NCBI GenBank assembly: GCA_963743305.1
Contig: CAVUPH010000032.1
Coordinates: 64,001-128,000, forward strand
Direction of reading: 5' to 3'
Source: an uncultured delta proteobacterium
GTDB taxonomy: Bacteria; Desulfobacterota; RBG-13-43-22
DNA: 64,000 bases
Below are positions 15,404 through 32,242 of the stretch, piece after piece. The notes below the pieces were generated by a model. That model was not told the DNA's origin. It saw only the letters and a list, made by a program, of their open reading frames with translations, and did no database searches. Each line of letters begins with the position of its first letter. Position 1 is the stretch's first letter. The translations under genes and the position numbers were made by a program.

Positions 15404-16831
15404 TTACGCGCCATAGCGGTACCGGTAATCATCCGTCAGCACACAGCGTCGGACCCGGGTGAAGGTCCGGGGACGGGTCAGACCCTCCCCGCCGGTGGCC
15501 ACATGGAGGGACTTGAAACCCTCCCCGTCCACACCGATCCCGGCCACGGAGGCGCCGTTTTTCACCAGTTGTGAGGCGTCGGCCCGGCTGGCCAGGCGGG
15601 CCATATTGGCCAGGCTGTTGGAGTGAAAAACGATGGTGTGACGCATCCCCTGCTCCGCGGCAATCCCCAGGGTCAGGGCTTCTTCAAAGTCCCGGCAGCG
15701 GACCAGCGGCAGGATGGGCATGATCTGCTCCGTCCAGATGAGGGGGTGTTCGGCGTCGGTCTCCAGGATGGCGATCCGGGTCTCGGACGGAATGGTCAGT
15801 CCGATGGTCCGCTGGAGGATCTCGGCCACCGGCCGGCCGATATAGTCCATGTTGATGACGCTCTGGACCCTCCCGGGACGGATCTCCTTGAAGATCACCG
15901 GCACCAGGGCCCGCCCCTGTTCGGCGGTAAGTTCAAAGGCCCCGTGCTGTTTCAACCGCTCTTTGAGCCGGTCGGCGGCCGAGGCCACCACGAAGATCTC
16001 CTTTTCGCTGGAACAGGGGGTGCAGTTGCTCAACGAGGCGCCCCGAATGATGCAGCGGGCGGCCCGGTCCAGGTCGGCCGTCTCGTCCACGATGACCGGG
16101 GGATTGCCGGGTCCCCCGGAGATGACCCGTTTTCCGGTCTGGGCCGCAAATTCCACGACCCGGTGTCCGCCGGTAACCGCGATCATGTCCACCAGGGGAT
16201 GGGTCATCAGCATCTGGGCCGTGGGGATCGAGGGTTCCGCCACCGTGGTCAGGCAGTCCGGCGGGCCTCCGGCGGCGACGATGGCCCGATTCAGGTCCCG
16301 GACCACCCGGGCCGAGATCTCCTTGGTCTTGGGATGGGGGTTGAAAACAACAGAATTCCCGCCGGCCAGCATGAGGATGCTGTTGTGGAGGATGCCGGGG
16401 GCGGCGTTGGTGACGGCGTTGACCGAAGCGATGACCCCGACCGGAATCCTTTCCAGCAGCGTGGTCCCCCGATCGCCGCTGAACACTTCGGGGGCCAGAT
16501 CCTCCAGGCCGGGGGCCTGACAGGCCACCTCGATCTTCAACATGGTGCCTTCCACGGCCCCCAATTCGGCTTCGGCCAATTCGAGTTCGCCGTAGGTCCG
16601 CCGGTTGGCCAACCCCACCTGCCTGATGATTTGAATTATTTTTTCCCGCAGTTCCAGGGAAAGCCCGACCAGTGCCGCCTGGGCCTTGACCGCCGCCTGA
16701 ATGGCCTCTTCCATGGTCCCGTACACCCCCCAGGCGGTCTCCGCGGCTGAAGACGTCTGTCCCGAACCGGCGGCCGGGTTCATTTCCGACCAGATCAGGG
16801 AAACGATCCGTTCAATCTGATTTTTATCCAT
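15404..16831 (-). CDS. BMC-associated aldehyde dehydrogenase (EutE/PduP-like) with N-terminal encapsulation peptide
   Basis: N-terminal helix MDKNQIERIVSLIWSEM plus low-complexity linker; GNSVVFNPHP, TGG, GPGNPPVIVDETADL, PCSSEKE, GEG..RPRTFTRVRRC. Confidence 0.9.
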   Translation of the reverse strand: MDKNQIERIVSLIWSEMNPAAGSGQTSSAAETAWGVYGTMEEAIQAAVKAQAALVGLSLELREKIIQIIRQVGLANRRTYGELELAEAELGAVEGTMLKIEVACQAPGLEDLAPEVFSGDRGTTLLERIPVGVIASVNAVTNAAPGILHNSILMLAGGNSVVFNPHPKTKEISARVVRDLNRAIVAAGGPPDCLTTVAEPSIPTAQMLMTHPLVDMIAVTGGHRVVEFAAQTGKRVISGGPGNPPVIVDETADLDRAARCIIRGASLSNCTPCSSEKEIFVVASAADRLKERLKQHGAFELTAEQGRALVPVIFKEIRPGRVQSVINMDYIGRPVAEILQRTIGLTIPSETRIAILETDAEHPLIWTEQIMPILPLVRCRDFEEALTLGIAAEQGMRHTIVFHSNSLANMARLASRADASQLVKNGASVAGIGVDGEGFKSLHVATGGEGLTRPRTFTRVRRCVLTDDYRYRYGA

Positions 16832-16867
16832 GGCTATTCCAGTCCCCAATTATCCGTTTGATCCGGC

Positions 16868-18322
16868 TCAAGCCGTAAGACCATAGCGGTAGCGAAAGTC
16901 ATCGGTCAGGACACAGCGCCGCACCAGGGTGAAGACCCGGGGCCGGGTGTGCCCTTCGCCGTTGGTGGCGATGTGAAAGGAGACGAACCCCTCCCCGGCG
17001 ACGCCGACGCTGGCCAGTCCGCAGGAGCCGTTTTTGACGAAGGCCGCGCACTTGGCGCGTGCGGCCATTTTTCGAATGGTCTCCAGGTTGTTGGAGTGGA
17101 TGGCCATGGTGTGGCCGTTGCCCTGTTCCGCGGCGATGGCCCGGTCGATGGCCTCCCCCGCGTCCCGGCAGCGAACCAGGGGGATGACCGGCATGATCTG
17201 CTCGGTCCAGACCAGGGGGTGATCGGGCCCCGTTTCCAGGATCACGATCTTGGCCTCCGGACCCACCGTCAGGCCGATGGCCTGGAGGATGAAGGAAGGT
17301 GGCTTGCCGATGTACTCCATGTTGATCACCCCCGGCCGGCCGGGCTCCCGGATTTCTTTGAAGATACGCGGGAGCAGTTCCTGCCCCTGCGGTACGGTGA
17401 TTTCATAGGCCCCGTACCGCTTCAACAGTTCCTTGAAGCGGTCGGCCACGGCGTCCACCACAAAAAGCTCCTTCTCGCTGGCGCAGGCCATGCAGTTCGA
17501 GAAGGAGGCCCCTTCGATCACACAGCGGGCGGCCCGGTCCAGATCGGCTGTTTCGTCGACCACCACCGGCGGGTTGCCGGGGCCGCCGGCGATCAGCCGC
17601 TTACCGGTCTGGGCGGCAAAAGCCACCACCCCGTGCCCGCCGGTGACGGCGATCAGCCGGATCAGGGGATGGGTCATGAGCTGCTGGGCCGAAGGCACCG
17701 AGGGTTCCTCCAGGCAACAGATGCAGTTGGCCGGCCCCCCGGCCTCCTGGATGGCCCGATTTAGGTCCCGCACCACCCGGGCCGCCACGTTCCTGGTCTT
17801 GGGGTGGGGGTTGTTGACCACCGTGTTTCCCCCGGCCAGCATCATGATGGCGTTGAACAGGATGGTGGGAGCACCGTTGGTCACCGGGTTCACCGAGGCG
17901 ATGACTCCCACCGGGATCCTTTCGATGATGGTTACACCCTTGTCTCCGGCGAAGACCTCCGGGATCAGGTCCTCCATCCCCAGGACCTCACAGGCGGAAA
18001 GATTTTTTTTGATATTGTCTTCCGCAGAACCTAAGCCGGTCTCCAAATATTCCATTTGCCCGTAGGTTTCGGCCCCGGTCCGCCCGACCCGGCGTATAAC
18101 CTGCAGGATTTCCTCCCGCTTCCGCAGCGGCAAGGCCATCAATTCTTTTTGCGCCCGGGCCGCCGCTTGAATACAGCTTTCAATGTCCGGAAAGACCCCG
18201 TCTCTTGCCGCCAAGGGGAACGATTCCGGAGCAGATTCTTCGGATACCTCGAACCCCTCGCTTTCCAGGCGACGAATGACCCGGGAAACGATCTGTTCAA
18301 GCCGCTCTTTAGCTAAAGCCAT
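16868..18322 (-). CDS. BMC-associated aldehyde dehydrogenase (EutE/PduP-like), paralog 2, with encapsulation peptide
   Basis: LAKERLEQIVSRVIRRLES N-terminus; GPGNPPVVVDETADL, ACASEKE, EQIMPVIP. Confidence 0.9.
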   Translation of the reverse strand: MALAKERLEQIVSRVIRRLESEGFEVSEESAPESFPLAARDGVFPDIESCIQAAARAQKELMALPLRKREEILQVIRRVGRTGAETYGQMEYLETGLGSAEDNIKKNLSACEVLGMEDLIPEVFAGDKGVTIIERIPVGVIASVNPVTNGAPTILFNAIMMLAGGNTVVNNPHPKTRNVAARVVRDLNRAIQEAGGPANCICCLEEPSVPSAQQLMTHPLIRLIAVTGGHGVVAFAAQTGKRLIAGGPGNPPVVVDETADLDRAARCVIEGASFSNCMACASEKELFVVDAVADRFKELLKRYGAYEITVPQGQELLPRIFKEIREPGRPGVINMEYIGKPPSFILQAIGLTVGPEAKIVILETGPDHPLVWTEQIMPVIPLVRCRDAGEAIDRAIAAEQGNGHTMAIHSNNLETIRKMAARAKCAAFVKNGSCGLASVGVAGEGFVSFHIATNGEGHTRPRVFTLVRRCVLTDDFRYRYGLTA

Positions 18323-19443: not shown

Positions 19444-20061
19444 TTAGTGGTCCCGACCCACCAAGGTGGCCAGAGCTTCCTCGGCGGCTGCCTTCGCGGC
19501 CTGAATGTTGGAGAGGGTTCCGGATAGATAGACCCGTCCGCTGGCTCCGAAGACGCTGGCATGAACCAGTTTGATATCCGCCGCCTTCTCCGCCTCATTG
19601 GCCGCGAATCCGGCATAGCCGGCCGGCACGACTTCAAGGATATACAGGGCGTCATCGGCCAAAATCATGTTGGCGTCCCGAAACCGGTTGACGATGGGGG
19701 TCATGAAAGGGTCGATCCGATCGATGGTTTCGGCCGCCAGTATCTTGGGCTTCAACCGGTCGGTCTCCTTCATTCCCAGATAATTCAAAACCACCTCCCC
19801 GGCTTCCCGGACATCGGCCGGAGAATCTCCGTGGACTTCCAGCATGCCATAGGTCCGTTCCACCACCATGGCCCCCGGTCGAACCTTGGCCTTTTTAAGC
19901 ACCACATCTGTCAGGGAATTGATCTCGATCCCCGGGGCAATTTCCAGAAAAAGACCCGATTGACCGGCGACCGGGTAGTAGCCTCGCGCCGTGCTGCTGA
20001 TGTAACCGACGAATTGCTTCTGCAGTTGATCAATAAAGGCAAAGGCTCGCAGTTCAATCAT
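19444..20061 (-). CDS. BMC-T shell protein, circularly permuted double-stacking type (CcmP/CsoS1D-like)
   Basis: ELRAFAFIDQLQKQF..TARGYYP..EIAPGIEI...VVERTYGMLEVH...LEVVPAGYAGFAANEAEKAA..GASGRVYLSG. Confidence 0.9.
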   Translation of the reverse strand: MIELRAFAFIDQLQKQFVGYISSTARGYYPVAGQSGLFLEIAPGIEINSLTDVVLKKAKVRPGAMVVERTYGMLEVHGDSPADVREAGEVVLNYLGMKETDRLKPKILAAETIDRIDPFMTPIVNRFRDANMILADDALYILEVVPAGYAGFAANEAEKAADIKLVHASVFGASGRVYLSGTLSNIQAAKAAAEEALATLVGRDH

Positions 20062-20071
20062 GGGAGCTCCT

Positions 20072-21277
20072 CTAGATGCTCTTTAACCATTCCCGCTTAT
20101 TCGGGCAGATGGCCGTGTTGATGGTGCAAGTGGCGTTTCCCTGGCAGGTACAGACGTGGTCGCCCCCCCGACTGAAGCGGCTGTAACAGAAATCGCTGAT
20201 CGGCTGCGCTACCCGGCAGTCCATGATCAAATCGGCGATCAGGCGGCCGATGGCCGGGGCCAGGCCAAAACCATGGCCGCTGAACCCCGCACAAAAAACA
20301 AATCCGGGGACTTCGCCGGTAAAACCGAGGATGGGGATACCATCCGACACTTGATCGATCAGCCCGGACCACACGCGAATGACCTGGACGTTTTTCAGGA
20401 TCGGGAAATAATCCAGGACCTGGCGGGAAATGGCCGGGCCGATGAAGTTGAACAGGGGCTTCCCGTCGCGGTAGATAAAATTCTCCGTTCCCACAAATCC
20501 CCCCCAGAAAAACGGTCCGTGAACGGTCTGGCGCCCGTAAAACAGCCCCCGGGCATGACCGATCATCTGCGGGAACAGCGGCGGGTAGGGTTCGGTAATC
20601 AAGGCCTCGGAAAACACCGGTTTCATGGGATAATCCAACCCCACCAGATTGGCGATCTTCCGACCCCCGATCCCGGCGGCATTGACGACCAGGTCCGTGT
20701 CGAAGACCTGTTTATCCGTTATAATTCGGGCGACCTTTCCCTTTTTCAACTTGAGGTCCACCACTTGCTCTTGGGTAAAGAATCGCGCCCCCAATCGCTT
20801 GGCTTTCAGAAAAAATCCGTAGGTCACCCGGAAGGGGTTGGCATGCCCGTCCGTCGGGCAATAACTGGCGCCAATCACTTTTTCCCCCACGTGGGGATTG
20901 ATGTCCAGGACTTGTTGTCGATCGAGCATCTCCAGCTCCAGGCCGGTCGTTCGTTGATTCTCCACTGACTTCCGCATCGTAGCCAGATCTTCCTCGGTGG
21001 TGCAGAGGCGCAGGTTTCCCTGGCGGACATATTCCACATCCATTTCCAGTTCTTCGTGAAGCTGGCCGTAGAGGCGGATGCTTTCCAGGGCCAGGGGCAT
21101 CTCTTTGAGATTACGGGCCGACTGCCGGACTCCGCCGCCATTGCTGCCCGAGGCCTCGCCCCCGATATCTCCCTTTTCGATGACCACGGGTTTGAGTCCC
21201 TCTTTGGCCAGATAGTAGGCCACGGCACATCCCATGACCCCTCCTCCCACAATCACTACATCGGCCGTATTCGCCAT
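20072..21277 (-). CDS. FAD-dependent amine dehydrogenase catalytic subunit (sarcosine oxidase beta / proline dehydrogenase beta / DAO family)
   Basis: VVIVGGGVMG, EASGSNGGGVR, DGHANP, WSGL, GFSGHGFGLAPAIG; ATG 21277 after AGGAG. Confidence 0.88.
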   Translation of the reverse strand: MANTADVVIVGGGVMGCAVAYYLAKEGLKPVVIEKGDIGGEASGSNGGGVRQSARNLKEMPLALESIRLYGQLHEELEMDVEYVRQGNLRLCTTEEDLATMRKSVENQRTTGLELEMLDRQQVLDINPHVGEKVIGASYCPTDGHANPFRVTYGFFLKAKRLGARFFTQEQVVDLKLKKGKVARIITDKQVFDTDLVVNAAGIGGRKIANLVGLDYPMKPVFSEALITEPYPPLFPQMIGHARGLFYGRQTVHGPFFWGGFVGTENFIYRDGKPLFNFIGPAISRQVLDYFPILKNVQVIRVWSGLIDQVSDGIPILGFTGEVPGFVFCAGFSGHGFGLAPAIGRLIADLIMDCRVAQPISDFCYSRFSRGGDHVCTCQGNATCTINTAICPNKREWLKSI

Positions 21278-21377
21278 AGTCTCTCCTGCCCTTGACACTC
21301 TCAACCCTTACTCATCCCGATCCACCCAGATCGGTCCGTGGCTTCCAAGATCCCTCTCCGATCCCTTTTCCGGTTTC

Positions 21378-22037
21378 TCAGCCGGTGGCAAAAACCGATA
21401 AAGGCAAGGGCCGGACCGGGGCCCGGGCGGTCATCGGCTCCAGTTCCGCCGGCGACCGGCCCAGTTCCTGGGCCAGGATCTGGGTGACCAACCGCTCACA
21501 GGTCTGTCCCTGGCACAACCCCATGCCGGCCCGGGTAATGCGTTTAATCCCGCTGACCGTTTGCATCCCGTTGCGGATGGCCTCCTTGATCTGGCCTCGA
21601 GTGATCTCCTCGCAGCGGCAAATCACCAAGTCGTCGTCAGCCGGGGCGGTCCCCGGGGCCTCCGGTTTCAGGCCCGATGCCCGGCCCTTCAGGGCTTTAA
21701 ACCGCTCGACGACCCGATCGACGATCCGTTCCAATTCTTCATCCTCGGAAACCGGGGGTGGAGCCGCAACGCCCACCCCAGTTCCAGCCTCGGCCGTCTC
21801 GGTTGCCGGACCGGTTTCACCCCGAGACGTTTCTCGGCCGGGTTTCGATTCCGACGTCGTGGGAAAGGCGTCCGGCGGCGTCTCCGCTTCGGGACGGTAA
21901 ACCACCTCGATCCCCTGCTCCTGGATTAGATCCTGGGCCGCGGCCGATATCCGGGCCCCCTCCCTTACGGCTAAGGTTTTATGCCCCTCCCGGACCAGGT
22001 CTTCGATATCTCGAGAAAAAATAAATTCAGGTCCCAT
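21378..22037 (-). CDS. BFD-like [2Fe-2S] dehydrogenase subunit with added N-terminal domain and encapsulation peptide
   Basis: C-terminal ICRCEEIT...RAGMGLCQGQTC...TARAPVRP; internal helix EDEELERIVDRVVERFKAL between Pro/Ala/Glu-rich linkers. Confidence 0.85.
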   Translation of the reverse strand: MGPEFIFSRDIEDLVREGHKTLAVREGARISAAAQDLIQEQGIEVVYRPEAETPPDAFPTTSESKPGRETSRGETGPATETAEAGTGVGVAAPPPVSEDEELERIVDRVVERFKALKGRASGLKPEAPGTAPADDDLVICRCEEITRGQIKEAIRNGMQTVSGIKRITRAGMGLCQGQTCERLVTQILAQELGRSPAELEPMTARAPVRPLPLSVFATG

Positions 22038-22047
22038 GCGGGCGCCC

Positions 22048-22666
22048 TTATTCTTTCCGACCGGTTAGACCGTTTAAGGTTTCCACCACTTTAGCGGCGG
22101 CCGCCAAAATTTCCGATTCGGTCCCGGCCAGATAGAGCCGACCGGCGGCCCCGAAAAAACTCAGGTCCACCAGGCGGACGTTACAGTGTTTTTCCGCTTC
22201 GTTGGCGGCAATCGAGGAATAAGCCGCCGGGGTAACTTCCAGCAGATAGACGTCGTTGCCCCCTAAGATGAGCATGCCCCGACTGTTCCGGTTGATGATG
22301 ACGGCCTGATAGGGATCGATCTTGTTGACAATACTGGTCGCCAGAATCTTCGGGGTCAGCCGGTCTTCTGGCTTCAGACCGATTTCATTAAGGATCATCT
22401 GCCCGGCATGGAGGATCTCTTCTTGATCGAAGGAATGGATTTCCAGCATGCCGTATCTTCTTTCCACGATCATCTCTCCCGGGCGGGCACTGGTCACCTT
22501 GAGGGCTATATCGGTCAACCGGTTGATTTCAATACCCGGCACGACCTCCACAAAGAGGGAAGACATGCCCTCCACCGGAAGAAATCCCCGGCAGCGACAG
22601 GCGAAATAGAGAGGCGAATTGAGGCTGAAGCCGATCAAGATGGCAGTAAGCACGTAGTTCCGGCAT
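22048..22666 (-). CDS. BMC-T shell protein (CcmP/CsoS1D-like), paralog 2; +1 frameshift near 22609
   Basis: Corrected N-terminus MPELRAYCHLDRLQPQFASYFACRCRGFLP aligns without gaps to 19444-20061; IVERRYGMLEIH, AANEAEK, GAAGRLYLAG; AAGGAG RBS. Confidence 0.87.
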
Positions 22667-22678
22667 GGGTGGATCTCC

Positions 22679-23300
22679 TTAGCTGTTAATCCTGTTTTCT
22701 TGAATGAAGTCTTTGGTGATACGACGGAAGGTCTCGGACAACTCCTGGGTCTGGCAAAAGACTACCCCCAAGCCCTCCAATTTTTTTAACAAGCGTTCCA
22801 TTTCCGTTTTGAGGGCCTCGTTGGCCAGGACCTCGCAGACCATAAATCCGTCCCTGGCGGCGAGAACCCGCTTGCCTTGCAGCAGGGCCGAAAAAACCAG
22901 GTCGGGAGTCCGGATCATCGGCCATCAGATGAGCCACTTTGGAGGCCACCATCAGGCATAAAGTGGGTAGCACGAGCACATCGGCGCGGGCCAATACCTT
23001 CTCCAGCCCCTCGGGTTTGACCGTATCCAGGATGCACGGCGCCCCTCCCTGCTCACGGACATCGGCCCCACAGACCCGAGAACGCACTGCGGGAACCGTA
23101 TACACCCCGGACCAGCCGGCCTGGGCTTCCAAGAGCGGCAATTGTTTCAGCGCCTCTTCCAGCCGCCGAATCCCGGCTTGGAAAACAATCAGCGCCCGGG
23201 GTCCCGGAGGGGCCGAAGAACGGACCCGCGGCCTCCCTTGTTCGCCCGATTCCAGCAGGACTTCCGCCACCAGTTTCCGAATCTCTTCTTTCGAGATCAT
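22679..23300 (-). CDS. BMC-associated flavoprotein-like protein with N-terminal encapsulation peptide; +1 frameshift near 22904
   Basis: MISKEEIRKLVAEVLLES; ADVLVLPTL..ASKVAHLMADD...ALLQGKRVLAARDG...LKKLEGLGV as in BMC-locus flavoproteins. Confidence 0.7.
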
Positions 23301-23322
23301 GGTGTGAAAAACGTCTCCCTCA

Positions 23323-24171
23323 TCACGAGGCCTGTGCCCAGGCAACGGATTGGCCTTTCTCTCCTAGACAGGAAAGGGCGATCCCGTAGGGCGTTACGAC
23401 CTGGGGGACTTGAGGTTTAAAGACCTCCAGACCGAGATTCTGGGCGACCAATTCCGTTAAGCCACCCAACTCGCAGGTTCCCCCCACCAAACAAACCCTG
23501 GGGATGCCCTCGAACCCTTCCAAGGCTTTTCGAATAATGGCCGAAACCTTTTCAATCACCGGACGAACAACGGGGAGGATCTCCGGATGACGGGAAGGGT
23601 CGATTTTGATCCTTTCGGCTTCCTCAAAGCTGATCCGCAGGTGACCGGACAGGACCAGGGAAAGATGAACCCCTCCGGTGGCTTCATCACTGGTCCGGAT
23701 AATCCGGCCGTCTCGAATCAGGGCTATCCCCGTGGTTCCCCCGCCGATATCCACCAGGGCCCCATCTTGGAGGTTGAGAAAACGGTTGGCCGCCGTGGGT
23801 TCGTCCAGGACCCGGACAACTTCCAACCCGGCTCCCTGCAGGATATAGCGGGTGGTATGCACATTGCCGGATTCCGTCTGCGGGGGAAAGGAGGTAGCCC
23901 CCTGATCGATGGGCAGCGAAGAGCGGCTTCGGATTTCTTCCATTATCGCCTTCAACAGGGTGAGGGTCCCGAAGTAATCAATAATCAGACCGCTGCCTAT
24001 TCCTTCGGAGCGCCGCATAGCCGCCGCCCTGGGCCGTCCCTGTTCATCCACTACAATCACCTTACTCTTGTAGGTTCCCAGGTCCACCCCGGCAAACAAT
24101 TCCCGGGCCCCGGAGAAATCCCAAGTTTCCGGCCGATTCATGATCCGACGAATGGTCTTGAGGGCTGTCAT
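23323..24171 (-). CDS. eutJ: Ethanolamine utilization protein EutJ-like (actin/Hsp70-fold ATPase)
   Basis: GVDLGT, LDEPTAAN, VDIGGGTTG, DEATGGVH, LVGGTC, VTPYGIA. Confidence 0.88.
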   Translation of the reverse strand: MTALKTIRRIMNRPETWDFSGARELFAGVDLGTYKSKVIVVDEQGRPRAAAMRRSEGIGSGLIIDYFGTLTLLKAIMEEIRSRSSLPIDQGATSFPPQTESGNVHTTRYILQGAGLEVVRVLDEPTAANRFLNLQDGALVDIGGGTTGIALIRDGRIIRTSDEATGGVHLSLVLSGHLRISFEEAERIKIDPSRHPEILPVVRPVIEKVSAIIRKALEGFEGIPRVCLVGGTCELGGLTELVAQNLGLEVFKPQVPQVVTPYGIALSCLGEKGQSVAWAQAS

Positions 24172-24723
24172 CAGATTAAATTGGGATAAAGCTCCCGACT
24201 CAGGGAAGGGATCACCACATGGCTTTGAATCAACCCTTCATCGGTCAGGGCCGCTAAACCGGCGTCTACCGCCGCCTGGACGGAACCGACATCTCCGGTT
24301 AAGGAAACATAGGATTTTCCGGCCAGACCCGTGGCACAGCGGATCTCGATAATCTCCACCGCCGCCGCCTTAACTGCCGCATCGGCCGCCAGGATGCAGG
24401 AGGACGCCGAATAGGTTTCAATGATCCCCAGGGCGCCAATGTTCAGGATCTGGGTGGCGCAACTGAGGGCCGGAAAAATACTCGGGTGGACATTGGGGAT
24501 CGTAAAGGAGTCGACCAGAAACTCCCCGGCGATTTCCCGGCCCACGTCCACCGCAGTTCTGCACCGAACCGACGTCGCCGGCGATCAGGGCCAAATAGCG
24601 CCCGGGGCAGACCGGCCGGGCCATGATCAGCTCGACGCTGGCCGCTTTGATCATCTCATCGGCGCAGTGGACCCCTTTGGCCACGCTGTTCAGTTCGATC
24701 AGCCCAATCGCTTTGTATGCCAT
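24171..24723 (-). CDS. pduT: PduT-like BMC-T shell protein (Fe-S-binding Cys); +1 frameshift near 24558
   Basis: AIGLIELNSVAKG..ADEMIKAA..ARPVCPGRY..GDVGSV then ALGIIETYS..AADAAVKAA..GLAGKS..GDVGSVQAAV. Confidence 0.85.
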
Positions 24724-24727
24724 GACC

Positions 24728-26077
24728 CTACCTCTTCTCCCGTTGGATAACGACCTGCCCGTCCACCGAAACCACCCGACCGGCCAGACTGGCATGGATC
24801 CGGGCACCCAGGGCCTTCTCCGGTATCTCTCCCAGCAGATCCCCCTGGTTGACCCGATCACCGGCTTGGACGACGGGCCGGGCCGGCGCCCCTAAATGCT
24901 GTTTCAAGGGGATGGCCACCCGATCCGCCCGGATTTCCCGGGAATCGAAACGGGGATGACGGTCGTATTTCTTGATTTGAAGACGTTCCATCAGCCGCTG
25001 CGTCGGGATCCTTCTCCCCTCGCGAAAGGCCGAGGGCCGGTAGTCCTCCCGAACGGTAGGCCGCTTCACCCCTTGGGCCAGCAGTTCCCGTTTGATCTGG
25101 GCGTTGACCTCCCGCGGGGAGATCATCATGGGGCAGGCGTATTTTTCGCAGACCCCGCATTCCGAACAGATCAGGGCGTCTTTTTGGATCTCTTGAGCCG
25201 CCGGGGAGGTGGACCCCAGTTGCCGCATGATTTTATGGGGGTTCAGGGAATGTCCCAGCAAATAGCGAGGGCACATGTCGGTGCAGCGGGAGCATTGGCA
25301 GCAGGCCAAACGGGTAATATTCCGTAGACGGGCCGGATCCTTGATCTTATCCACGACCACCGGATGATCCGGAGCCAGGACTAAAAGGCCGCTGGTGGTC
25401 TTGCCGACCGGCGTCGCCAGATCCGAGACCACCTGGCCCATCATGGGCCCTCCCAGAACGACCCGAAATTCCCCGAGCACGGGCCCCCCCCGCCAACCCG
25501 ATCACCTCTCCGACCGACAGGCCGATGGGGACCTTCAGGATCAGAGGTTCCGCCACCTCTCCCCCGACGGTTAGATACCTTTCGAGTAACCGGGCGGCCT
25601 TCCTCCACGGCTTGGTCGATATTCAGGAGGGTTTCCACGTTGCTGACCACGGCCCCCACCTGCAGGGGCAGACCCCCCTTCCGGGACCACCCGCCCCATG
25701 ACCTCGTACACCAGGACCTGCTCATCCCCGGCCGGGTAGAAATCCGCCAGTTCAAAAAGATCGATCTTTTTGTAAGGCCCCCGCCCGACCTTATCCCGCA
25801 GGACGGCCAGGGCCTTTTGATGTTTTCCCTTTAGACACAGGGTTCCTTGAGGGGCCCCGGTGCATTCCATGACCCGCAGGAGACCCCGGAGGATCCGATC
25901 GGCTTCCTGCTCCAGCAGATAGGGATCACTCATCAGCAGCGGTTCGCAGGAAGCCCCGTTGGCCAGGACCCGCTCCACCCTGGCCTTCAATTTGACGTGG
26001 GTCGGGAAGCCGGCCCCCCCGGCCCCGACCACCCCGGCTTCCTGCACCCGGCTGATGATCTCCTGGCTCGTCATCAC
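24728..26077 (-). CDS. pduS: PduS/RnfC-like flavin Fe-S oxidoreductase; three +1 frameshifts near 25675, 25580 and 25485
   Basis: AGVVGAGGAGFPTHVK, NGASCEPLL, YPAGDEQ, GGPMMG, CCQCSRCTDMCP, CSECGVCEKYACP, QHLGAP, IHAS. Confidence 0.85.
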
Positions 26078-26087
26078 GCTGCTTTTC

Positions 26088-26363
26088 CTAAGTTCCGCTC
26101 AGATCCAAGCTGTCCACAATCCCCACCACCACCGCGTCCACGGGGATTAATTTCTCCTGGTCGAAGGCCTGCATGGCCGGACTGCCCTGGGTGATGATGA
26201 CCAGTTCTCCCACCCCCGCTCCGATTTCATCGGCCGCCACCAGGACGTCGCCGGCCGGGGTCAATTTCTTGCCCAACGGCTGGACAAAGAGCAGCCGCAA
26301 CGCGTGGATCTTTTCATTTTTTTTGGTCGACCAGACGTTCCCCATCACCTTGGCAATTTTCAT
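26088..26363 (-). CDS. eutN: BMC-P pentamer (EutN/CcmL family)
   Basis: MKIAKVMGNVWSTKK...VAADEIGAGVGELV...GSPA...PVDAVVVGIVD. Confidence 0.93.
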   Translation of the reverse strand: MKIAKVMGNVWSTKKNEKIHALRLLFVQPLGKKLTPAGDVLVAADEIGAGVGELVIITQGSPAMQAFDQEKLIPVDAVVVGIVDSLDLSGT

Positions 26364-26449
26364 GGTATCTTTCCCGAGACCCGCTTAGGCCGGTCTAGCC
26401 GTTAGATTCTCTCTTAGGTGTCCGTGATGCCGAAGCCAGGCCCCACCGA

Positions 26450-26755
26450 TCATCCCAGTCCTTCCCGGGCCTGAATGGCCTCCAGGCTGGTTTTGACCGC
26501 CGCAATATCCCCGAAGATCCCGATCATGGTCAAGTGCTGGGGACAGCTTCCTTTGAGGTCAAAGACATGAACGGCAGCGGCCTTTTCGGCAATGTCCGCG
26601 GCCGCCACCATATCCACCAACCGCCCTTGAACCAATCCCACGGCGCTGAAGTTGATGATCTCCAGCGTCTTCTTGCCGGTGGAACCCATCCGGGTCATTA
26701 AGATATCGATGACCCCCGGTCCGGGGTGGGTAATGAACTGAATATTCAGCGCCAT
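26450..26755 (-). CDS. GrpU-like BMC-H shell protein
   Basis: AVGLVQG..DMVAAADIAEKAA and the GSCPQ motif (GxCPQ of GrpU). Confidence 0.85.
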   Translation of the reverse strand: MALNIQFITHPGPGVIDILMTRMGSTGKKTLEIINFSAVGLVQGRLVDMVAAADIAEKAAAVHVFDLKGSCPQHLTMIGIFGDIAAVKTSLEAIQAREGLG

Positions 26756-26890
26756 CCTCTTTTCCTTATGGGTCCAGCCGGGCTGGTCCCCTTACCAAAA
26801 CGAATCCGGCCTCTCCGCCCGCGGGGATCGATTTTTTGTTCTGGCCGGGGGACTGGTCCCGACCCCGCGGTCAACCGGACCCGGAACGAT

Positions 26891-27172
26891 TTATTTTTCG
26901 GCCTTGGGGAGAATGAACTCGATATCCCCGTGGGGTCTGGGGATAACGTGGACCGACAGGAGCTCGCCCACCCTTTTGGCCGCCGCCCCGCCGGCATCGG
27001 TAGCGGCTTTGACCGCGCCCACATCCCCCCGGACAAAAATCGTCACCAAACCGCCGCCGGCATGCTCTTTTCCCACCATCTTGACGTTGGCCGCTTTCAC
27101 CATGGCATCGGCCGCCTCAATGGCACCGACCAATCCCCGGGTTTCCACCATACCTAATGCTTGTTCACCCAT
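26891..27172 (-). CDS. Canonical BMC-H hexamer (PduA/EutM-like)
   Basis: [26 protein letters not shown]...[14 protein letters not shown]...VHVIPRPH. Confidence 0.96.
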
Positions 27173-27197: not shown

Positions 27198-27701
27198 TTA
27201 TCGTTTCAATCGAATCGCCCTGGCCTTCATGGACCAGGCACGAGGTACTTCAATGGTTACCACGGCGGTTTGATCCATCCGCTCCGTCTTACGGACCGCG
27301 GTGGCCGGAGCCTCTCCTAAAACGGCCCCGGACCGATCCAAAACCACCACCAGCTCCCCCTTTTCCGGGAGCGGCAGAAACTCATGGGGCAGGGTCACCG
27401 CCGCCTTATCATCCGGCAGGCTTTCATCGACGATGAAAATGGCCTGACCCGGACAAATGGGCACGCAGGACTGACAGCCAATGCATTTATCTTCATCCAG
27501 GTGCGGGAGGTTGGTAATATCCCTCCCCACCGAGATGGCTTCGACCCGGCAACTGGCCTCGCAGGGGTTGCAGGGAATATGTTCGGTGCACTCGATCACG
27601 GCCACCGGCCCCCGCCGCCGCCGGGCTTCGGTAGGGATACCGGGACTGTCCCTTAATTCTTCTTCCGATAGAAAGCCTGTTTGCGATAATCCTGGGGCCA
27701 T
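27198..27701 (-). CDS. 4Fe-4S dicluster ferredoxin subunit of the dehydrogenase complex
   Basis: ECTEHIPCNPCEASC and CIGCQSCVPICPGQAIF. Confidence 0.87.
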   Translation of the reverse strand: MAPGLSQTGFLSEEELRDSPGIPTEARRRRGPVAVIECTEHIPCNPCEASCRVEAISVGRDITNLPHLDEDKCIGCQSCVPICPGQAIFIVDESLPDDKAAVTLPHEFLPLPEKGELVVVLDRSGAVLGEAPATAVRKTERMDQTAVVTIEVPRAWSMKARAIRLKR

Positions 27702-27706
27702 CCGTT

Positions 27707-28795
27707 TTACCTTTCCATCAGGGCGTAAAGTTGTTCCTTGTTCTGCCGGCGAGCTTCGCCATAGGGTCCGCTGCGCAAACCGGACATGCTTTCCAACTGC
27801 TCCGCCCGCTGGTGTTCAAAGGCGTCGGTATCCAAGTATCCCAGGCTGTGGGCCGCGGCCAATCCGGCAATGCGCCCCTCAATAATCGCCGTGCTGGCTT
27901 CCTCAATTCCGGAGACATCCCCCGCCACGTAAATCCCCGGAAGGGAAGTTTGCTGGTCGAGATCATGGATCGGCACATTCCCTCCCAAAGCGGAAAGCGA
28001 GGCCATTTTACAGCCGGCCATCCGCAAAAGCTGGGTCATCGGGTTGAGGCCCACGGCAATGCAGATGGTATCCACTTCCAGTTCCTTTTCCGTTCCGGCA
28101 ACGGGTTGCCACTTGGAATCGACCTCAACGATCGTAGCCCCGATCACTCGGTCACTCCCCCGGGCCTCCTTGATGGTATGGGACAGGAAAAAAGGGACCC
28201 CGTAGCGGGCCACCTTGGCCGCGTGGACCCCATACCCGGAAATCCGAGGGGCGGCGTCGATGACTGCGGCTATCTGGCATCCGGCTTGAAGCAGTTGAAA
28301 ACTGACCACGACCCCCACATTGCCGGAACCCACCATGAGAATGTTGTTCCCCGGCCGAACGCCATGAAGGTTGGCCATGGTCTGGGCCGCGCCGGCTCCG
28401 ATTACCCCGGGAAGGGTCCACCCAGGGAAAGGGATCATATTTTCCGAAGCGCCGGTGGCCACCAGAACCCGCTCCGCCTTGACCTCTTCAATCCGGTCCT
28501 GAATCATGACATTCATGGTCCGGTTCTCATAAATCCCCAGGACCACTGCCTTCAGAAGGACTTCCACGCCAAGTTGGCGGGCCTCGTCCAACAGGCTTTG
28601 GCCGATATGAAATCCCCGTTCCTGGGCGCGGTGTTCTTTGGAACCGAAAAACTTATGGATCTGTTTAAAGAGCTGGCCGCCCGGCCGTTCGTTTTCATCA
28701 AAAACCACCACTTCGACCCCGCAGCGGGCCGCCTCGATCGCGGCGGAAAGGCCGGCCGGTCCCGCCCCAATACAAACCAGTTCGCATCGTCTCAT
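27707..28795 (-). CDS. NAD(P)/FAD-dependent oxidoreductase subunit (sarcosine oxidase alpha N-terminal / HcnB-like)
   Basis: IGAGPAGLSAA, PGGQL, ATGASE..FPGWTLPGV, GSGNVG, YVAGD; ~362 aa with no folate-binding domain. Confidence 0.87.
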   Translation of the reverse strand: MRRCELVCIGAGPAGLSAAIEAARCGVEVVVFDENERPGGQLFKQIHKFFGSKEHRAQERGFHIGQSLLDEARQLGVEVLLKAVVLGIYENRTMNVMIQDRIEEVKAERVLVATGASENMIPFPGWTLPGVIGAGAAQTMANLHGVRPGNNILMVGSGNVGVVVSFQLLQAGCQIAAVIDAAPRISGYGVHAAKVARYGVPFFLSHTIKEARGSDRVIGATIVEVDSKWQPVAGTEKELEVDTICIAVGLNPMTQLLRMAGCKMASLSALGGNVPIHDLDQQTSLPGIYVAGDVSGIEEASTAIIEGRIAGLAAAHSLGYLDTDAFEHQRAEQLESMSGLRSGPYGEARRQNKEQLYALMER

Positions 28796-29115
28796 TTTTT
28801 CCCCGCCGGCGGCTCCGGTCCATGGCCGTGCTGCGTTTGGATTGACATACCCGCTTGAAGCGGTTCCACACAGGTCCGCACGTTGGGCCTTCCATCCACG
28901 ACCATGATGCAGTCGGTGCATCGGCCAATGGCACAAAACATCCCCCGGGGTTCTTTTCGTTTCGCCGTGTAACGGTGGATGATAACCCCGTTGCTCCGGA
29001 GGGCCATGGCGATGGGTTCCCCCGCGAAACCCTCCATCGGTTGTTGATCAAAGGTAAACCGGACCTTTTCACCCTTTTCAAAAGTCCCCAGAATGGGATG
29101 GTCCTCGATGCGCAT
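28792..29115 (-). CDS. [2Fe-2S] subunit (Fer2_4 / HcnA-like)
   Basis: GEPIAMAL...PRGMFCAIGRCTDCIMVVDGRPNVRTC. Confidence 0.88.
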   Translation of the reverse strand: MRIEDHPILGTFEKGEKVRFTFDQQPMEGFAGEPIAMALRSNGVIIHRYTAKRKEPRGMFCAIGRCTDCIMVVDGRPNVRTCVEPLQAGMSIQTQHGHGPEPPAGKK

Positions 29116-29259: not shown

Positions 29260-30583
29260 CTAACAAAATCCGAACATTTCCGTAAAAGTGAAGTTGGTCC
29301 CCACCAGGGGTATCCCGGTCATGGCGCAGGCCTCCAGAGTCAGGGAGCGGATGTCTTCCCGTTCCAGATTGGCCAGCTTGGTCTTCCCGGCGGCCTTGGC
29401 CAGGAGAACGGTCTCGTAAGTCATGGCCTGAATATAGTTGGCCACCCGTTGCGCCGCCGCCTCGATGTCCAGGTTCTTTCGCAATTCCGGGTCCTGGGTT
29501 CCGATCCCCCAGGGGCATTTTCCCTCGTGGCAGCGGAGGCAGACCACGCAGCCCATGGCGATCATGGCCCCGGTTCCGATGGCCACGGCATCGGCGCCGA
29601 TGGCCAAGGCCTTGGCTACATCGGCCCCGTCTTTGATCCCGCCGGAGACGATCAGACTCACCTCATCTTTGACGCCCATCTCCTCCAGGGCCCGGACGGC
29701 CTGGACCAGGGCCGGCAGGGTGGGGATCCCCAGGTGTTTGGAAGCCATGACCGGGGCGGCCCCGGTGCCGCCTTCGGAACCGTCGATGACGACGCCGTCG
29801 GCGCCGGTCTTGACGGCGATCTTGACGTCTTCCTTAACCCGGCCGGCGGCCATCTTGATGAAGATGGGGATCTGATAGTCGGTCACGTCCCGCAGTTCCT
29901 GGATCTTCAAGACCATATCGTCGGCCCCGAAAATATCCCCATGGCGGGGATGACTGTGCAGGTCAATACCTTCCGGCAACTGCCGGAATTGCGCAATTTC
30001 CTTGGTGATTTTACTGCCCATCAGGTGTCCGGAAAGACCGGGTTTGGCGCCGATGCCGGTGATCAGCTCCAGGGCATCAGCGGCCTCGATGTTGGTCAGG
30101 GAAAAGCCCATCCGGCTGGGGGTGATCTGCACCACCTGTTTATAGGAATTCGCTCGTTCTTCGGGAAGCAACCCGCCTTCTCCATTGTTGATCGAGGTCC
30201 CCACGATCTGGGTGGACTTGGCCAGAGCGATTTTGGCCTCTTTGCTCAAGGCCCCATAAGACATGCCGGAAATCATGATCGGCGTTTCAATGACCAGGGG
30301 TTTTTTGGCGAAGCGAGCCCCCAGGACCGTCCGGGTCTGGCAGTCCTCCCGGTAGGTGTCCACCGACAAACGGGAGAGCTGGGCCGCCAGGATGAGCAGG
30401 TCGTCGAAATTGGGATAGCGGGCTGGTGGAACCACATCCCCGTATCCGGTGCTTACCCGTATAGGCCTTGTATTTGACCTCGGCCACCGTTTCCGCATTC
30501 CAGACCCCGCGCTGGACATCCTTGGCCTTGGGCACCTTCCCTTTTTCCTCCTGGTATTGCTTATATTCTTTTTCCTCGGACAT
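29260..30583 (-). CDS. FMN-binding glutamate synthase domain protein (GltB2 / MgsC-like); +1 frameshift near 30421
   Basis: SGMSYGALS, NGEGG, GAKPG, HSHPRHGD, IDGSEGGTGA, SGGIKDGADVAKALAIGAD, CVVCLRCHEGKCPWGIGTQDP. Confidence 0.88.
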
Positions 30584-30585
30584 GG

Positions 30586-31290
30586 CTACCTCCCCGGCTG
30601 AACCTGAAGATGTTGGGGTTTGAAGAGGTAATATTCGTGGCGGCCCAGGACCTTCGGAACCACACTCCGGAAGTGGTCCACCCCCTGCTCCAGACCATAC
30701 TGCTTGAAAAGGCCTTCCAGCGCCTTTTTTTCTTCATCGGAAATGGGGATGATCGAGGCGTTTCCGCCCAGTTTGTCTTCCACCGCGGGGTCCAGGGTGT
30801 GAATGATGCCGTTGTACATGGACTCCCCAATAACCGGCCCCATTTCCCCGAGGACGATGATCCGTCCCCCCAGGGTCATGTATCCGGTCCACCGGCCCAC
30901 ACTGCCGCAAATGATGAGGTTGCCGCCTTTCATCCCCAGGCCGGCCCGGGTGCCGCTGTTTCCTTTGACCAGGATGGTACCCCCGAGCATGGAAGGGCCG
31001 CAGTTGCTGCCGGTGTTCATCTCGACGATGATCTCCCCGGCCTTCATGTTGTCACCGGTGTACCAGCCGGTATTCCCCTTGACGTGCAGGGTCGGACCTT
31101 CCAGGAACCCACCGGTGTAGAAACCGGTGCTGCCCTCGACGGTGACGGTGCCTTCCCCTTTTAAGGCTGTAGCGAAATTGTGGACCGAGTGGGAATTCTT
31201 GATAACGATTTCCCGGTCCTGCTTAATGGTTTCCCTCAGTTTTCGGTTTACATCCCAACTGGTCATCCCGGCAATGTCTAAATTGACCAT
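30586..31290 (-). CDS. GXGXG beta-helix glutamate synthase domain protein (GltB3 / MgsB-like)
   Basis: Repeating G..G...G..M.GG units (GNTGWYTGDNMKAG, GNSGTRAGLGMKGG). Confidence 0.85.
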   Translation of the reverse strand: MVNLDIAGMTSWDVNRKLRETIKQDREIVIKNSHSVHNFATALKGEGTVTVEGSTGFYTGGFLEGPTLHVKGNTGWYTGDNMKAGEIIVEMNTGSNCGPSMLGGTILVKGNSGTRAGLGMKGGNLIICGSVGRWTGYMTLGGRIIVLGEMGPVIGESMYNGIIHTLDPAVEDKLGGNASIIPISDEEKKALEGLFKQYGLEQGVDHFRSVVPKVLGRHEYYLFKPQHLQVQPGR

Positions 31291-32177: not shown

Positions 32178-32242
32178 AATGGGTCTCCTTTTCCCTTGGA
32201 AAGGCCTAAATCGGCGAAAAAACGATTTCGCCCCCTCCGCTA

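Follow-up and report, generated by a model that had tools for sequence, protein, structure and literature searches.

In a 2025 study of Salmonella EutQ (PMC12487888), residues 1-99 are reported to target GFP to bacterial microcompartments (BMCs), deletion of residues 9-41 to take EutQ off the shell, and residues 62-99 to bind cargo encapsulation peptides. Binding of the EutQ N-terminal region to BMC-H/BMC-T shell proteins is described there and in PMC4827028. Encapsulation peptides are recognised as amphipathic helices of 15-20 aa that are joined by a poorly conserved linker and are limited to BMC-associated proteins (Kinney 2012, Aussignargues 2015; PMC4594438); those described so far are N- or C-terminal (PMC4594438). 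Multi-subunit enzymes can enter by piggy-backing on one peptide-bearing subunit, as for PduCDE and EutBC (PMC4594438). In the BMC catalogue of Sutter et al. (2021), types MIC2-7 are given as of unknown function and without an obvious signature enzyme, the HMM table includes HMM01266_1_mic6 (DAO) and HMM04324_1_mic6 (Fer2_BFD), and a MIC6 shell protein derives from an unclassified member of the Desulfobacteraceae.

The window (the whole 64,000-nucleotide stretch of DNA that was analysed) contains a locus that, by its genes and its taxon, is in line with the MIC6 HMM names of the catalogue, the comparison being one of names. In the open-access literature searched, nothing beyond the catalogue was found on MIC6 function or on the N-terminal module of MIC6 proteins described below. 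Features of the locus are collected in Table 1.

Table 1. Features of the [2Fe-2S] subunit gene and of its neighbours, in window coordinates.
Feature	Coordinates	Strand	Evidence or context
Whole gene, BMC-type small [2Fe-2S] dehydrogenase subunit (BFD subunit)	21378..22037	-	ORF, Pfam, full-length homologues
N-module, residues 1-48, beta-alpha-beta-alpha-beta, EutQ/EutT N-terminal and TIGR02536 C-terminal type	21894..22037	-	AlphaFold2, profiles
Linker 1, residues 49-95, disordered, Pro/Ala/Glu/Thr-rich	21753..21893	-	pLDDT <50
Amphipathic helix, residues 96-120, internal, encapsulation-peptide-like, core LERIVDRVVERFKAL	21678..21752	-	AlphaFold2, hhalign, helix HMM
Linker 2, residues 121-134	21636..21677	-	pLDDT <50
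Fer2_BFD / SO_alpha_A3 domain, residues 135-219, Cys140, 142, 175, 180	21381..21635	-	Pfam, 1y56_A, cysteines
DAO-family catalytic subunit, 401 aa from ATG at 21277	20072..21304	-	Pfam DAO 253 bits; 1y56_B E 1.2e-52
Pyr_redox_2 subunit, SoxA-N-like, orthologues 357 aa	27707..28936	-
4Fe-4S dicluster ferredoxin (Fer4) subunit, 167 aa	27198..27701	-
Acylating aldehyde dehydrogenase 2 (AldDH2), N-terminal encapsulation peptide residues 1-22 (18257-18322)	16868..18322	-	NF011927 502 bits; encapsulation-peptide alignment
Acylating aldehyde dehydrogenase 1, N-terminal encapsulation peptide from M7 (about 16775-16831)	15404..16849	-	NF011927 506 bits
Encapsulation peptide plus flavoprotein-like, TIGR02536-like; frame broken in assembly near 22900	22679..23345	-
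CcmP-like tandem BMC-T, directly upstream of BFD gene	22048..22653	-	NF053796 216 bits
CcmP-like tandem BMC-T, directly downstream of DAO gene	19444..20061	-	NF053796 234 bits
Tandem-BMC gene	24171-24861	-	shell/redox block 24171..27172
PduS-like	24728-26077	-	shell/redox block 24171..27172
BMC-P	26088-26363	-	shell/redox block 24171..27172
BMC	26450-26755	-	shell/redox block 24171..27172
BMC-H	26891-27172	-	shell/redox block 24171..27172

The BFD gene is an intact ORF with an ATG start, encoding 219 aa. Its C-terminal domain was matched by Fer2_BFD (PF04324; residues 138-190; 55.1 bits, cut-off 26; E 9.5e-15) and by SO_alpha_A3 (residues 143-218; 46.3 bits, cut-off 23.1), and aligned with 1y56_A residues 410-491 (E 1.8e-8). 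The ligands of the Fer2_BFD cluster are four cysteines, arranged as C-x-C and a later C-x4-C; the corresponding C140, C142, C175 and C180 were invariant in full-length homologues (n = 26).

An AlphaFold2 model of the 219-aa protein was made from a 26-row alignment. Residues 1-50 formed a confident beta-alpha-beta-alpha-beta domain (pLDDT 82-91; mean for the N-module 86.5), and a helix was placed at 98-120, with values of 56, 80 and 68 for the 10-residue blocks 91-100, 101-110 and 111-120. Two stretches, 51-94 and 120-135, had pLDDT below 50. N-module, linkers, helix and cluster domain occupied the same positions across 23 sequences. In these homologues linker 1 was 31-67 aa and linker 2 was 13-32 aa; both comprised 75-100% small or polar residues and were not conserved in sequence. 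At E<=0.001, 709 database proteins matched the BFD subunit, and at least 93% of the query was covered in 119 of the best 120 of these 709, counts that place the five-part architecture beyond chance. A BFD-like [2Fe-2S] subunit with an N-terminal module, linkers, a helix and a CRCEE domain had been proposed in the initial annotation, and ORF, Pfam and AlphaFold2 results agree with it.

The BFD gene product is probably the small [2Fe-2S] chain (BFD / SoxA-A3-type) of a flavin amine dehydrogenase with four parts, its partners being the DAO catalytic subunit, the Pyr_redox_2 subunit and the 2x[4Fe-4S] ferredoxin. As in a small subunit of PDH1 / sarcosine-oxidase type, it is homologous to the alpha-subunit A3 / C-terminal domain, and the partner genes were found in the window and at 55-56 of 57 short-form loci (DAO 55/57, Pyr_redox_2 56/57, Fer4 56/57). 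The substrate would be an N-alkyl-glutamate-type secondary amine, oxidised to an aldehyde for the acylating dehydrogenases. The BMC-type DAO subunit has a conserved, type-specific Cys-rich C-terminal tail (about 20075-20173). A selenocysteine codon was considered for the in-frame stop of the PduS-like gene and was rejected, given a TAA codon and homopolymer indels next to the break.

Across 23 long-form and 57 short-form loci, the N-terminal extension was present exactly where shell genes adjoin. BMC shell genes were found at 23/23 long-form loci, all from Desulfobacterota-type MAGs, and at 0/57 short-form loci, where the extension was likewise found in 0/57. The limitation to BMC-associated homologues that marks encapsulation peptides therefore holds for this extension (23/23 vs 0/57 loci). 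When translation was taken to begin at the first start codon, short forms were 81-155 aa, most of them 90-113 and four longer than about 113, with 3-69 residues ahead of Cys-x-Cys. The expectation that homologues outside BMC loci are short and lack the extension was thus borne out at 57/57 loci, and the other computational checks suggested in the initial annotation likewise gave the expected result. The initial annotation had also named occurrence of the extension in BMC-free genomes as an observation that would count against its reading. A whole-genome search recovered the extension in 4/301 sampled genomes of the phylum, with PF00936 on the same contig in 4/4, and a genome of the same genus (G169) had neither extension nor BMC domain.

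The helix had been placed at 21690-21746, which corresponds to residues 98-116, EDEELERIVDRVVERFKAL. Consistent with a short amphipathic alpha-helix, as predicted by AlphaFold2 at 98-120, its hydrophobic face comprises L102/I105/V106/V109/V110/F113/L116 and its hydrophobic moment, 0.63, ranks it with the top five 18-mers in the protein. The linkers separating it from its neighbours are poorly conserved, in keeping with the encapsulation-peptide description. The helix is not terminal: it spans residues 96-120 in a protein of 219, and a folded module precedes it. When compared by hhalign with 24 aldehyde dehydrogenase N-terminal peptides, it gave a probability of 95% and a score of 28.8; the reversed control scored 15.1, and none of 40 column shuffles exceeded 15.4. 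The earlier claim of likeness to the aldehyde dehydrogenase N-termini was confirmed in this comparison, whereas the likeness also claimed for the "flavoprotein" N-terminus was weak (score 16.8, close to the shuffle ceiling). At profile level, the helix is similar to the encapsulation peptides of the locus's aldehyde dehydrogenases. Among 37,904 genome ORFs, the best non-self match of a helix HMM was the AldDH2 N-terminus (8.7 bits, E 1.9), a rank that it shared with an unrelated ORF; in the E. coli eut region the same HMM matched neither EutQ H3/H4 nor the EutE peptide. A tblastn search of the source genome found no paralogues of module or helix. Encapsulation peptides were absent from the Pyr_redox_2 (357 aa) and Fer4 (167 aa) subunits, and none was found on the other dehydrogenase subunits. 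In the BFD subunit, a helix of encapsulation type thus occurs naturally at an internal site, with a linker on either side.

The N-domain had been left unexplained by the initial annotation; it proved to be a module of the EutQ/EutT/TIGR02536 type, so that the extension goes beyond an encapsulation peptide. As judged from sequence profiles, the module recurs at the N-termini of EutT and EutQ and at the C-terminus of TIGR02536, a relationship first recognised in the present analysis. TIGR02536 positions about 165-206 (model length 207) were matched by 22/23 module members. The BFD protein itself scored 16.7 bits, through the C-terminal module part only, against the family cut-off of 152.6, and does not belong to the TIGR02536 eut_hyp family. 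EutT was matched by 17/23 members, an hhalign comparison with EutT gave a probability of 85%, and in a set of about 38,000 ORFs E. coli EutT ranked first among the non-self matches, at 17.4 bits over a background of <=9.6. After iteration, the N-termini of EutQ and of EutT both scored 22.8 bits with the module profile (E about 5.5e-5; background <=8.0, ~38,000 ORFs), which indicates homology to EutQ residues about 1-46; direct comparison of the module with E. coli EutQ by hhalign was weak (probability 4%, E 0.0096, register 5-46 to 4-46). The EutQ link is remote, becoming clear only after one profile iteration. Bridging proteins matched NF012001 positions 1-53. NF012001, the EutQ family, had no match in the BFD protein or elsewhere in the genome (completeness 90%). 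A full-length hhalign match to EutQ was rejected as spurious; it fell inside the BFD domain.

Further searches with the module were of two kinds. In those for fold or family, Pfam had no family for the N-domain, Foldseek against the PDB gave 0 matches at E<=0.001, and a wide VIA-align search gave a best Z of 5.2 (7tzi_B, 44 residues), a generic small alpha/beta match that is uninformative. Top ESM Atlas scores for residues 1-50 were 0.80-0.81, to unnamed clusters and within the noise range. For relatives, the 23-sequence profile was run against 1.84 billion representatives and 47 proteins were found, including mini-proteins with encapsulation peptide plus module and one TIGR02536-like protein. 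The mini-proteins, of about 80-100 aa, consist of an encapsulation-peptide-like helix and the module only, and both orders occur; among 301 genomes of the phylum, such proteins were matched in two (G000 and G260). Within MIC6 loci the module is borne by three unrelated proteins, at either terminus. In sister loci the TIGR02536-like protein consists of encapsulation peptide, flavoprotein-like domain and module; the module was on the C-terminus of this gene in 20/23 sister loci, and a NifX-like protein bore it in 2 loci; sister loci have two or three module-bearing proteins. The source genome differs: its TIGR02536-like product (22679..23345) is without the C-terminal module borne by orthologues, and the BFD subunit bears the genome's only copy. 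A metagenome scan for ~100-aa proteins with encapsulation peptide plus module yielded a single locus (L082), a 1.65-kb contig on which the module relative adjoins a PilT-like ATPase and no BMC gene is visible; the module may therefore not be exclusive to BMCs. Two further module proteins are P0165 (tandem-module) and P0144 (NifX-type fusion).

We consider it fairly likely that a bipartite tether recruits the dehydrogenase of this MIC6-type Desulfobacterota microcompartment by piggy-backing. In the BMC lineage, the BFD subunit would have gained an N-terminal extension of roughly 134 aa that acts as a two-part tether. The 48-aa module, homologous to the EutQ N-terminal H1/H2 region, would contact the shell. 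After a flexible linker of ~46 aa, the helix of aldehyde dehydrogenase peptide type would join the cargo core or the shell, and a second linker of ~14 aa would lead to the cluster domain, held in the dehydrogenase complex. Since the other subunits are without such a peptide, the whole complex would reach the lumen by piggy-backing on the BFD subunit. The Cys-rich tail of the DAO subunit could be a second or alternative contact. Several observations stand against a tether: the helix is internal, unlike the terminal encapsulation peptides described (PMC4594438), its HMM matched AldDH2 poorly and the EutQ and EutE elements not at all, the EutQ link is remote, fold searches were uninformative, and one module relative lies beside a PilT-like ATPase.

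The same arrangement can be read as a EutQ-like adaptor, the BFD subunit being the compartment's shell-cargo linker and not merely cargo. The module would bind shell tiles, the helix would bind or co-condense with the aldehyde dehydrogenase peptides, as EutQ H3/H4 do, and the whole core would be tied to the shell through this subunit. EutQ itself has been proposed to bind at an interface between tiles. We regard the adaptor reading as possible but doubtful. The order of elements equals that of EutQ 1-99 (PMC12487888), mini-proteins of helix plus module exist in both orders, the genome is without a EutQ-family match, and the loss of the module from the lineage's TIGR02536-like protein leaves the BFD subunit as sole carrier. 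However, it is cargo encapsulation peptides and not EutQ H3/H4 that the helix resembles, peptide-peptide binding is hypothetical, and where sister loci have two or three module proteins no single one need be the linker. It is likewise possible but doubtful that the module-linker-helix cassette is a portable two-handed shell-cargo coupler, used in either order, free or fused to unrelated proteins. The MIC6 [2Fe-2S] subunit would then stand in for EutQ, nucleating the cargo core and fastening it to the shell. The fusion partners would be the BFD subunit, the TIGR02536 flavoprotein-like protein, the NifX-like protein, EutQ and EutT.

Two other readings were judged improbable. The extension might position a relay instead of cargo, the [2Fe-2S] domain swinging from the flavoenzyme in the lumen to a shell-side redox partner, which could be the PduS-like protein, Fer4 or a BMC-T pore. 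Redox proteins abound in the locus (PduS-like, Fer4, Pyr_redox_2), CcmP-like BMC-T genes lie on both sides of the BFD and DAO genes, and linker lengths are held within 31-67 and 13-32 aa; an electron carrier of this kind is nonetheless unlikely, since the matching domain in PDH1 alpha (1y56_A 410-491) is a fixed part of the chain and short forms at 57 non-BMC loci work without a tether. Alternatively, the helix alone would be related to BMCs and the N-module would bind a partner subunit or small molecule, or regulate, independently of compartments. There is little probability in this reading. The module's generic beta-alpha-beta-alpha-beta fold, the relative that adjoins the PilT-like ATPase where no BMC gene is visible and the proteins P0165 and P0144, recovered apart from their loci, would suit such a role, but the module is missing in all 57 non-BMC homologues, those of its relatives that could be detected and have names all belong to the eut operon (EutQ, EutT, TIGR02536), and within MIC6 loci it occurs on three unrelated proteins at either terminus.

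Under the preferred reading, that of a piggy-backing tether, a targeting-type extension found only in MIC6-type loci is direct sequence evidence that the amine dehydrogenase is encapsulated cargo, and the specificity of the extension to these loci makes this enzyme the likely MIC6 signature enzyme, the aldehyde-generating step for which this metabolosome type had no obvious candidate. Identification of the N-domain ties the 2025 result that the EutQ N-terminus bridges shell and cargo to a compartment type far removed from it, and to four or more further protein families. A modular shell-binding domain is suggested, which is testable and could be reused in engineering. If the portable coupler were true, EutQ-type assembly would be general, well beyond ethanolamine compartments, and the missing MIC6 signature enzyme would be an N-alkyl-glutamate-type dehydrogenase releasing an aldehyde.

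The enzyme is closest in its catalytic parts to the L-proline dehydrogenase PDH1 of Pyrococcus horikoshii (PDB 1Y56), in which chain B is matched by the DAO subunit (E 1.2e-52) and the C-terminal domain of chain A by the BFD domain (E 1.8e-8), and to heterotetrameric sarcosine oxidase, in which the N-terminal part of SoxA is matched by Pyr_redox_2. HcnABC and the opine and hydroxyproline dehydrogenases are similar three-subunit enzymes. Unlike in PDH1 and sarcosine oxidase, the alpha chain is here split into Pyr_redox_2 and BFD subunits and Fer4 is added; no solved or named relative has the N-terminal extension. TIGR02536 'eut_hyp' has the module alone in common, at the C-terminus rather than the N-terminus. 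Canonical encapsulation peptides (PduP, PduD, EutC, EutE, CcmN) share with the BFD helix an amphipathic helix of 15-20 aa, poorly conserved linkers, confinement to BMC-associated homologues and presence on one subunit of a multi-subunit enzyme; they are terminal, whereas the BFD helix is internal, with two linkers and a folded domain upstream, and its targeting role is putative. EutQ differs in its C-terminal cupin acetate kinase domain, in place of the [2Fe-2S] BFD fold, and in its two helices H3/H4 that bind peptides, where the BFD subunit has one long helix resembling cargo peptides. As in EutQ 1-99, a homologous module of ~46 aa lies at the very N-terminus of the BFD subunit and is followed by a flexible stretch, a helical element and the catalytic domain.

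The BFD gene is an intact ORF starting with ATG and is located in a minus-strand microcompartment (BMC) operon. A Pfam search of its product identified two domains towards the C-terminus and found no family in residues 1-134, here termed the extension. An AlphaFold2 model built with 26 homologues comprised a confident beta-alpha-beta-alpha-beta domain at residues 1-50 (pLDDT 82-91), disorder at 51-94, a helix at 98-120, disorder at 120-135 and then the cluster domain. The initial annotation had divided the protein in the same way, correctly to the residue; the helix it placed at ~21690-21746 corresponds to residues 98-116. A large protein database contained 709 relatives at E<=0.001. As 119 of the 120 relatives listed covered at least 93% of the query (length 196-229 aa), the four-part architecture is a family trait.

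Features of the BFD gene and its operon (window positions)
Feature	Position	Strand	Remark
BFD gene	21378-22037	-	intact ORF, 219 aa
Fer2_BFD [2Fe-2S] domain	residues 138-190		Pfam 55.1 bits, cut-off 26
Sarcosine-oxidase alpha A3 domain	residues 143-218		Pfam 46.3 bits, cut-off 23.1
BMC-T(dp), BFD, DAO, BMC-T(dp)	19444-22653		two CcmP-like tandem BMC-T genes, either side of the DAO-BFD pair
DAO C-terminal tail	20075-20173	-	Cys-rich
Two acylating aldehyde dehydrogenases (AldDH)			NF011927, 506 and 502 bits
RpiR-type regulator
Encapsulation peptide-bearing flavoprotein-like gene
EutJ
BMC-H, BMC-P
Tandem BMC gene (one)	24171-24861
PduS-like protein	24728-26077
Pyr_redox_2 protein, 4Fe-4S ferredoxin	27198-28936		Pyr_redox_2 matches SoxA N-terminal part
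Glu_synthase-like, GXGXG, class-II amidotransferase, glutamine-synthetase-like genes	29260-33583	-	downstream in operon

Three genes of the neighbourhood appear disrupted in the window, with breaks near 22900 (flavoprotein-like), near 24554 (tandem BMC) and between 25479 and 25671 (PduS-like). At all three sites the short-read contigs of four public runs were one base shorter, and the orthologues of these genes are single ORFs, so the breaks probably reflect homopolymer errors in the assembly and not pseudogenes. The parts of the BFD gene under short-read contigs (21421-21616 and 21819-22010) contained no indels.

A scan of species-representative genomes returned 522 stretches encoding a BFD relative, and the best 80 of these were analysed. 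The query was matched end to end in 23 (long form; all Desulfobacterota-type MAGs, one labelled Alphaproteobacteria) and only from residue 72-135 onwards in 57 (short form; Bacillota, Spirochaetota, Bipolaricaulota and others). When the window's proteins were searched against these 80 loci, BMC shell genes were found in 23/23 long-form loci versus 0/57 short-form loci. The short-form loci encoded the catalytic subunit DAO (55/57), Pyr_redox_2 (56/57) and Fer4 (56/57). Counted from the first start codon, their BFD ORFs were 81-155 aa long and had 3-69 residues (typically 7-25) ahead of the Cys-x-Cys motif. Most were 90-113 aa, close to the ~90-100 aa anticipated for homologues outside microcompartments. 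Of 301 genomes sampled from the phylum, four had the extension (residues 1-125), the window's genome among them, and in all four it shared its contig with PF00936 genes. Its occurrence in genomes without BMC genes, named beforehand as evidence against a compartment role, was not seen in the best 80 loci or the 301 genomes. The single same-genus genome lacked both the extension and any BMC domain. The locus is rare and patchy (G000, G199, G258 and G260 of the 301 genomes; 2/8 genomes of a sister genus, 0/1 of the same genus), a distribution suggestive of gain or loss by transfer.

Two components had matches in the proline dehydrogenase complex of Pyrococcus horikoshii (1Y56): the DAO protein in chain B (E 1.2e-52) and the BFD domain in residues 410-491 of chain A, its C-terminal domain (E 1.8e-8). 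These matches identify the BFD protein as the small cluster subunit of a PDH1/sarcosine-oxidase-type secondary-amine dehydrogenase with a split alpha chain. The genes for this dehydrogenase core lie between those of CcmP-like double-layer trimers, and most of the 23 sister loci have both trimer genes. With its glutamine-synthetase-like and glutamate-synthase-like genes, the operon is reminiscent of the N-methylglutamate route for amines; by this analogy we infer that the substrate may be an N-alkyl-glutamate and the product an aldehyde feeding the two acylating dehydrogenases. The downstream four-gene block also occurs beside the short-form dehydrogenase in six non-BMC loci (L056, L057, L060, L062, L066 and L079), which suggests a gamma-glutamyl/N-alkyl-glutamate route for an amine. 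Pyr_redox_2 (357 aa) and the 4Fe-4S ferredoxin (167 aa) are encoded separately in every BMC locus and fused (~525-540 aa) in many non-BMC relatives (compared with L024-L079). BMC-type DAO is 401 aa long, versus ~375 aa in its closest non-BMC homologues. The additional tail is conserved in at least 20 loci (consensus about E-C-A-C-Q-G-N-A-x-C-T-x4-A-V-C-P-N-K-R-E-W-L-K-S-I), and might coordinate a metal or cluster, or else provide a second shell contact.

Encapsulation peptides are defined in PMC4594438 as short amphipathic helices with poorly conserved linkers, restricted to BMC-associated homologues. The BFD helix is likewise short, amphipathic (hydrophobic moment 0.63), linker-flanked and confined to BMC-associated homologues; one face holds L102, I105, V106, V109, V110, F113 and L116. 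The helix alignment (23 sequences) was compared by hhalign with AldDH N-terminal peptides of the same loci and gave a probability of 95% and a score of 28.8 with 20 columns in register, the AldDH segments having been chosen by a hydrophobic-pattern regular expression, with some bias toward similarity. A reversed alignment scored 15.1, and 40 column shuffles reached 15.4 at best (median 7.6); one mis-extracted row was left out for this control. The likeness to AldDH N-termini proposed in the initial annotation was thus upheld at profile level, and that to the flavoprotein-like peptide was weak (16.8, no better than the shuffle ceiling). With a helix HMM run over 37,904 stop-to-stop genome ORFs, the AldDH2 N-terminus was the first non-self match, at only 8.7 bits and tied with an unrelated ORF.

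The N-terminal domain (the module) was also predicted with a confident fold by itself (pLDDT 86.5), and no informative solved relative was found by Foldseek or VIA-align. A profile of the 23 N-domains, searched against 1.84 billion representatives, matched 47 proteins, 36 of them the BFD-type family itself. The others included ~100-aa proteins (encapsulation peptide-like helix, linker, C-terminal module), a 78-aa protein with module and helix in reverse order, a 249-aa protein (encapsulation peptide, flavoprotein-like domain, module), a tandem-module protein and a module-NifX fusion. Mini-proteins of ~80-104 aa containing only helix, linker and module, in either order (P0155, P0159, P0160, P0161 and L082:131-412), could be free shell-cargo adaptors. 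These bridging proteins matched two family models, TIGR02536 at positions ~162-206 (model length 207; best E 4.6e-9) and EutQ over its first 53 positions (E 2e-4 and 2e-5). Among the N-domains, 22/23 matched the TIGR02536 C-terminus and 17/23 matched EutT. Comparison with E. coli EutT gave an hhalign probability of 85%, and the EutT N-terminus was the top non-self match among ~38,000 ORFs (17.4 bits, background <=9.6). The direct match to E. coli EutQ was weak (probability 4%), though in register; after one iteration, made with 48 module segments, the N-termini of EutQ and EutT scored 22.8 bits each (E ~5.5e-5, background <=8.0).

Among the best 45 matches listed, the module was found C-terminally on the flavoprotein-like protein in at least 20 of the 23 loci and N-terminally on a NifX-like protein in at least 2. 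The latter (L008:16324-16980 and L003:15647-16243) consists of module, linker and a dinitrogenase FeMo-cofactor-type domain (PF02579). In the window's genome the NifX-like gene is present only in module-less form, on another contig (C8). The window's flavoprotein-like (TIGR02536-like) protein ends ~57-65 aa early and without the C-terminal module when 22679-22724 is compared with L010:8401-9294, L017:7660-8466 and others; orthologues in at least 20/23 loci carry it. Colinearity of the window with a related short-read contig (X3, 22554-22811) suggests that this lineage has indeed lost the module. The module is best read as a putative compartment-association module, since it occurs at either end of three unrelated proteins of one locus and in three eut-operon families.

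A two-part tether on the BFD subunit, with binding steps predicted from sequence, is considered most likely. The module would contact the shell, the helix would join the cargo core or the shell in the manner of encapsulation peptides, and the dehydrogenase would hold the cluster domain. In Salmonella, as reported in PMC12487888, EutQ 1-99 was sufficient to target GFP to the compartment, EutQ without residues 9-41 stayed with cargo but off the shell, and EutQ 62-99 bound the EutC and EutE encapsulation peptides; in an earlier pull-down (PMC4827028), EutM binding required EutQ 1-100. A bolder version would, by analogy, make the BFD subunit the EutQ-equivalent linker of the compartment: no EutQ-family match was found in the window's genome (90% complete), and the BFD subunit has the only detectable module copy in this lineage. 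Three points count against these readings. A module relative (L082), the one genomic context found for the mini-proteins, lies beside a PilT-like ATPase, and no BMC gene is visible on its 1.65-kb contig. The EutQ link is remote, and the conserved Cys-rich DAO tail may be another contact.

In the BMC catalogue (Sutter et al. 2021), the HMM table labels the DAO and Fer2_BFD models mic6, one MIC6 shell protein entry is from a Desulfobacteraceae MAG, and the main text lists MIC2-7 among the types whose function is unknown and which lack an obvious signature enzyme. In a search of the open-access literature, including the catalogue's main text and HMM table, neither the module as a shared domain nor a function for MIC6 was found described. 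Neither encapsulation peptides nor the N-terminal linker of EutQ is new in itself. What appears to be new is that a ferredoxin-type subunit combines an encapsulation peptide with a EutQ-type module, that the module extends across families, and that the peptide is internal, a position shared by no encapsulation peptide described before.
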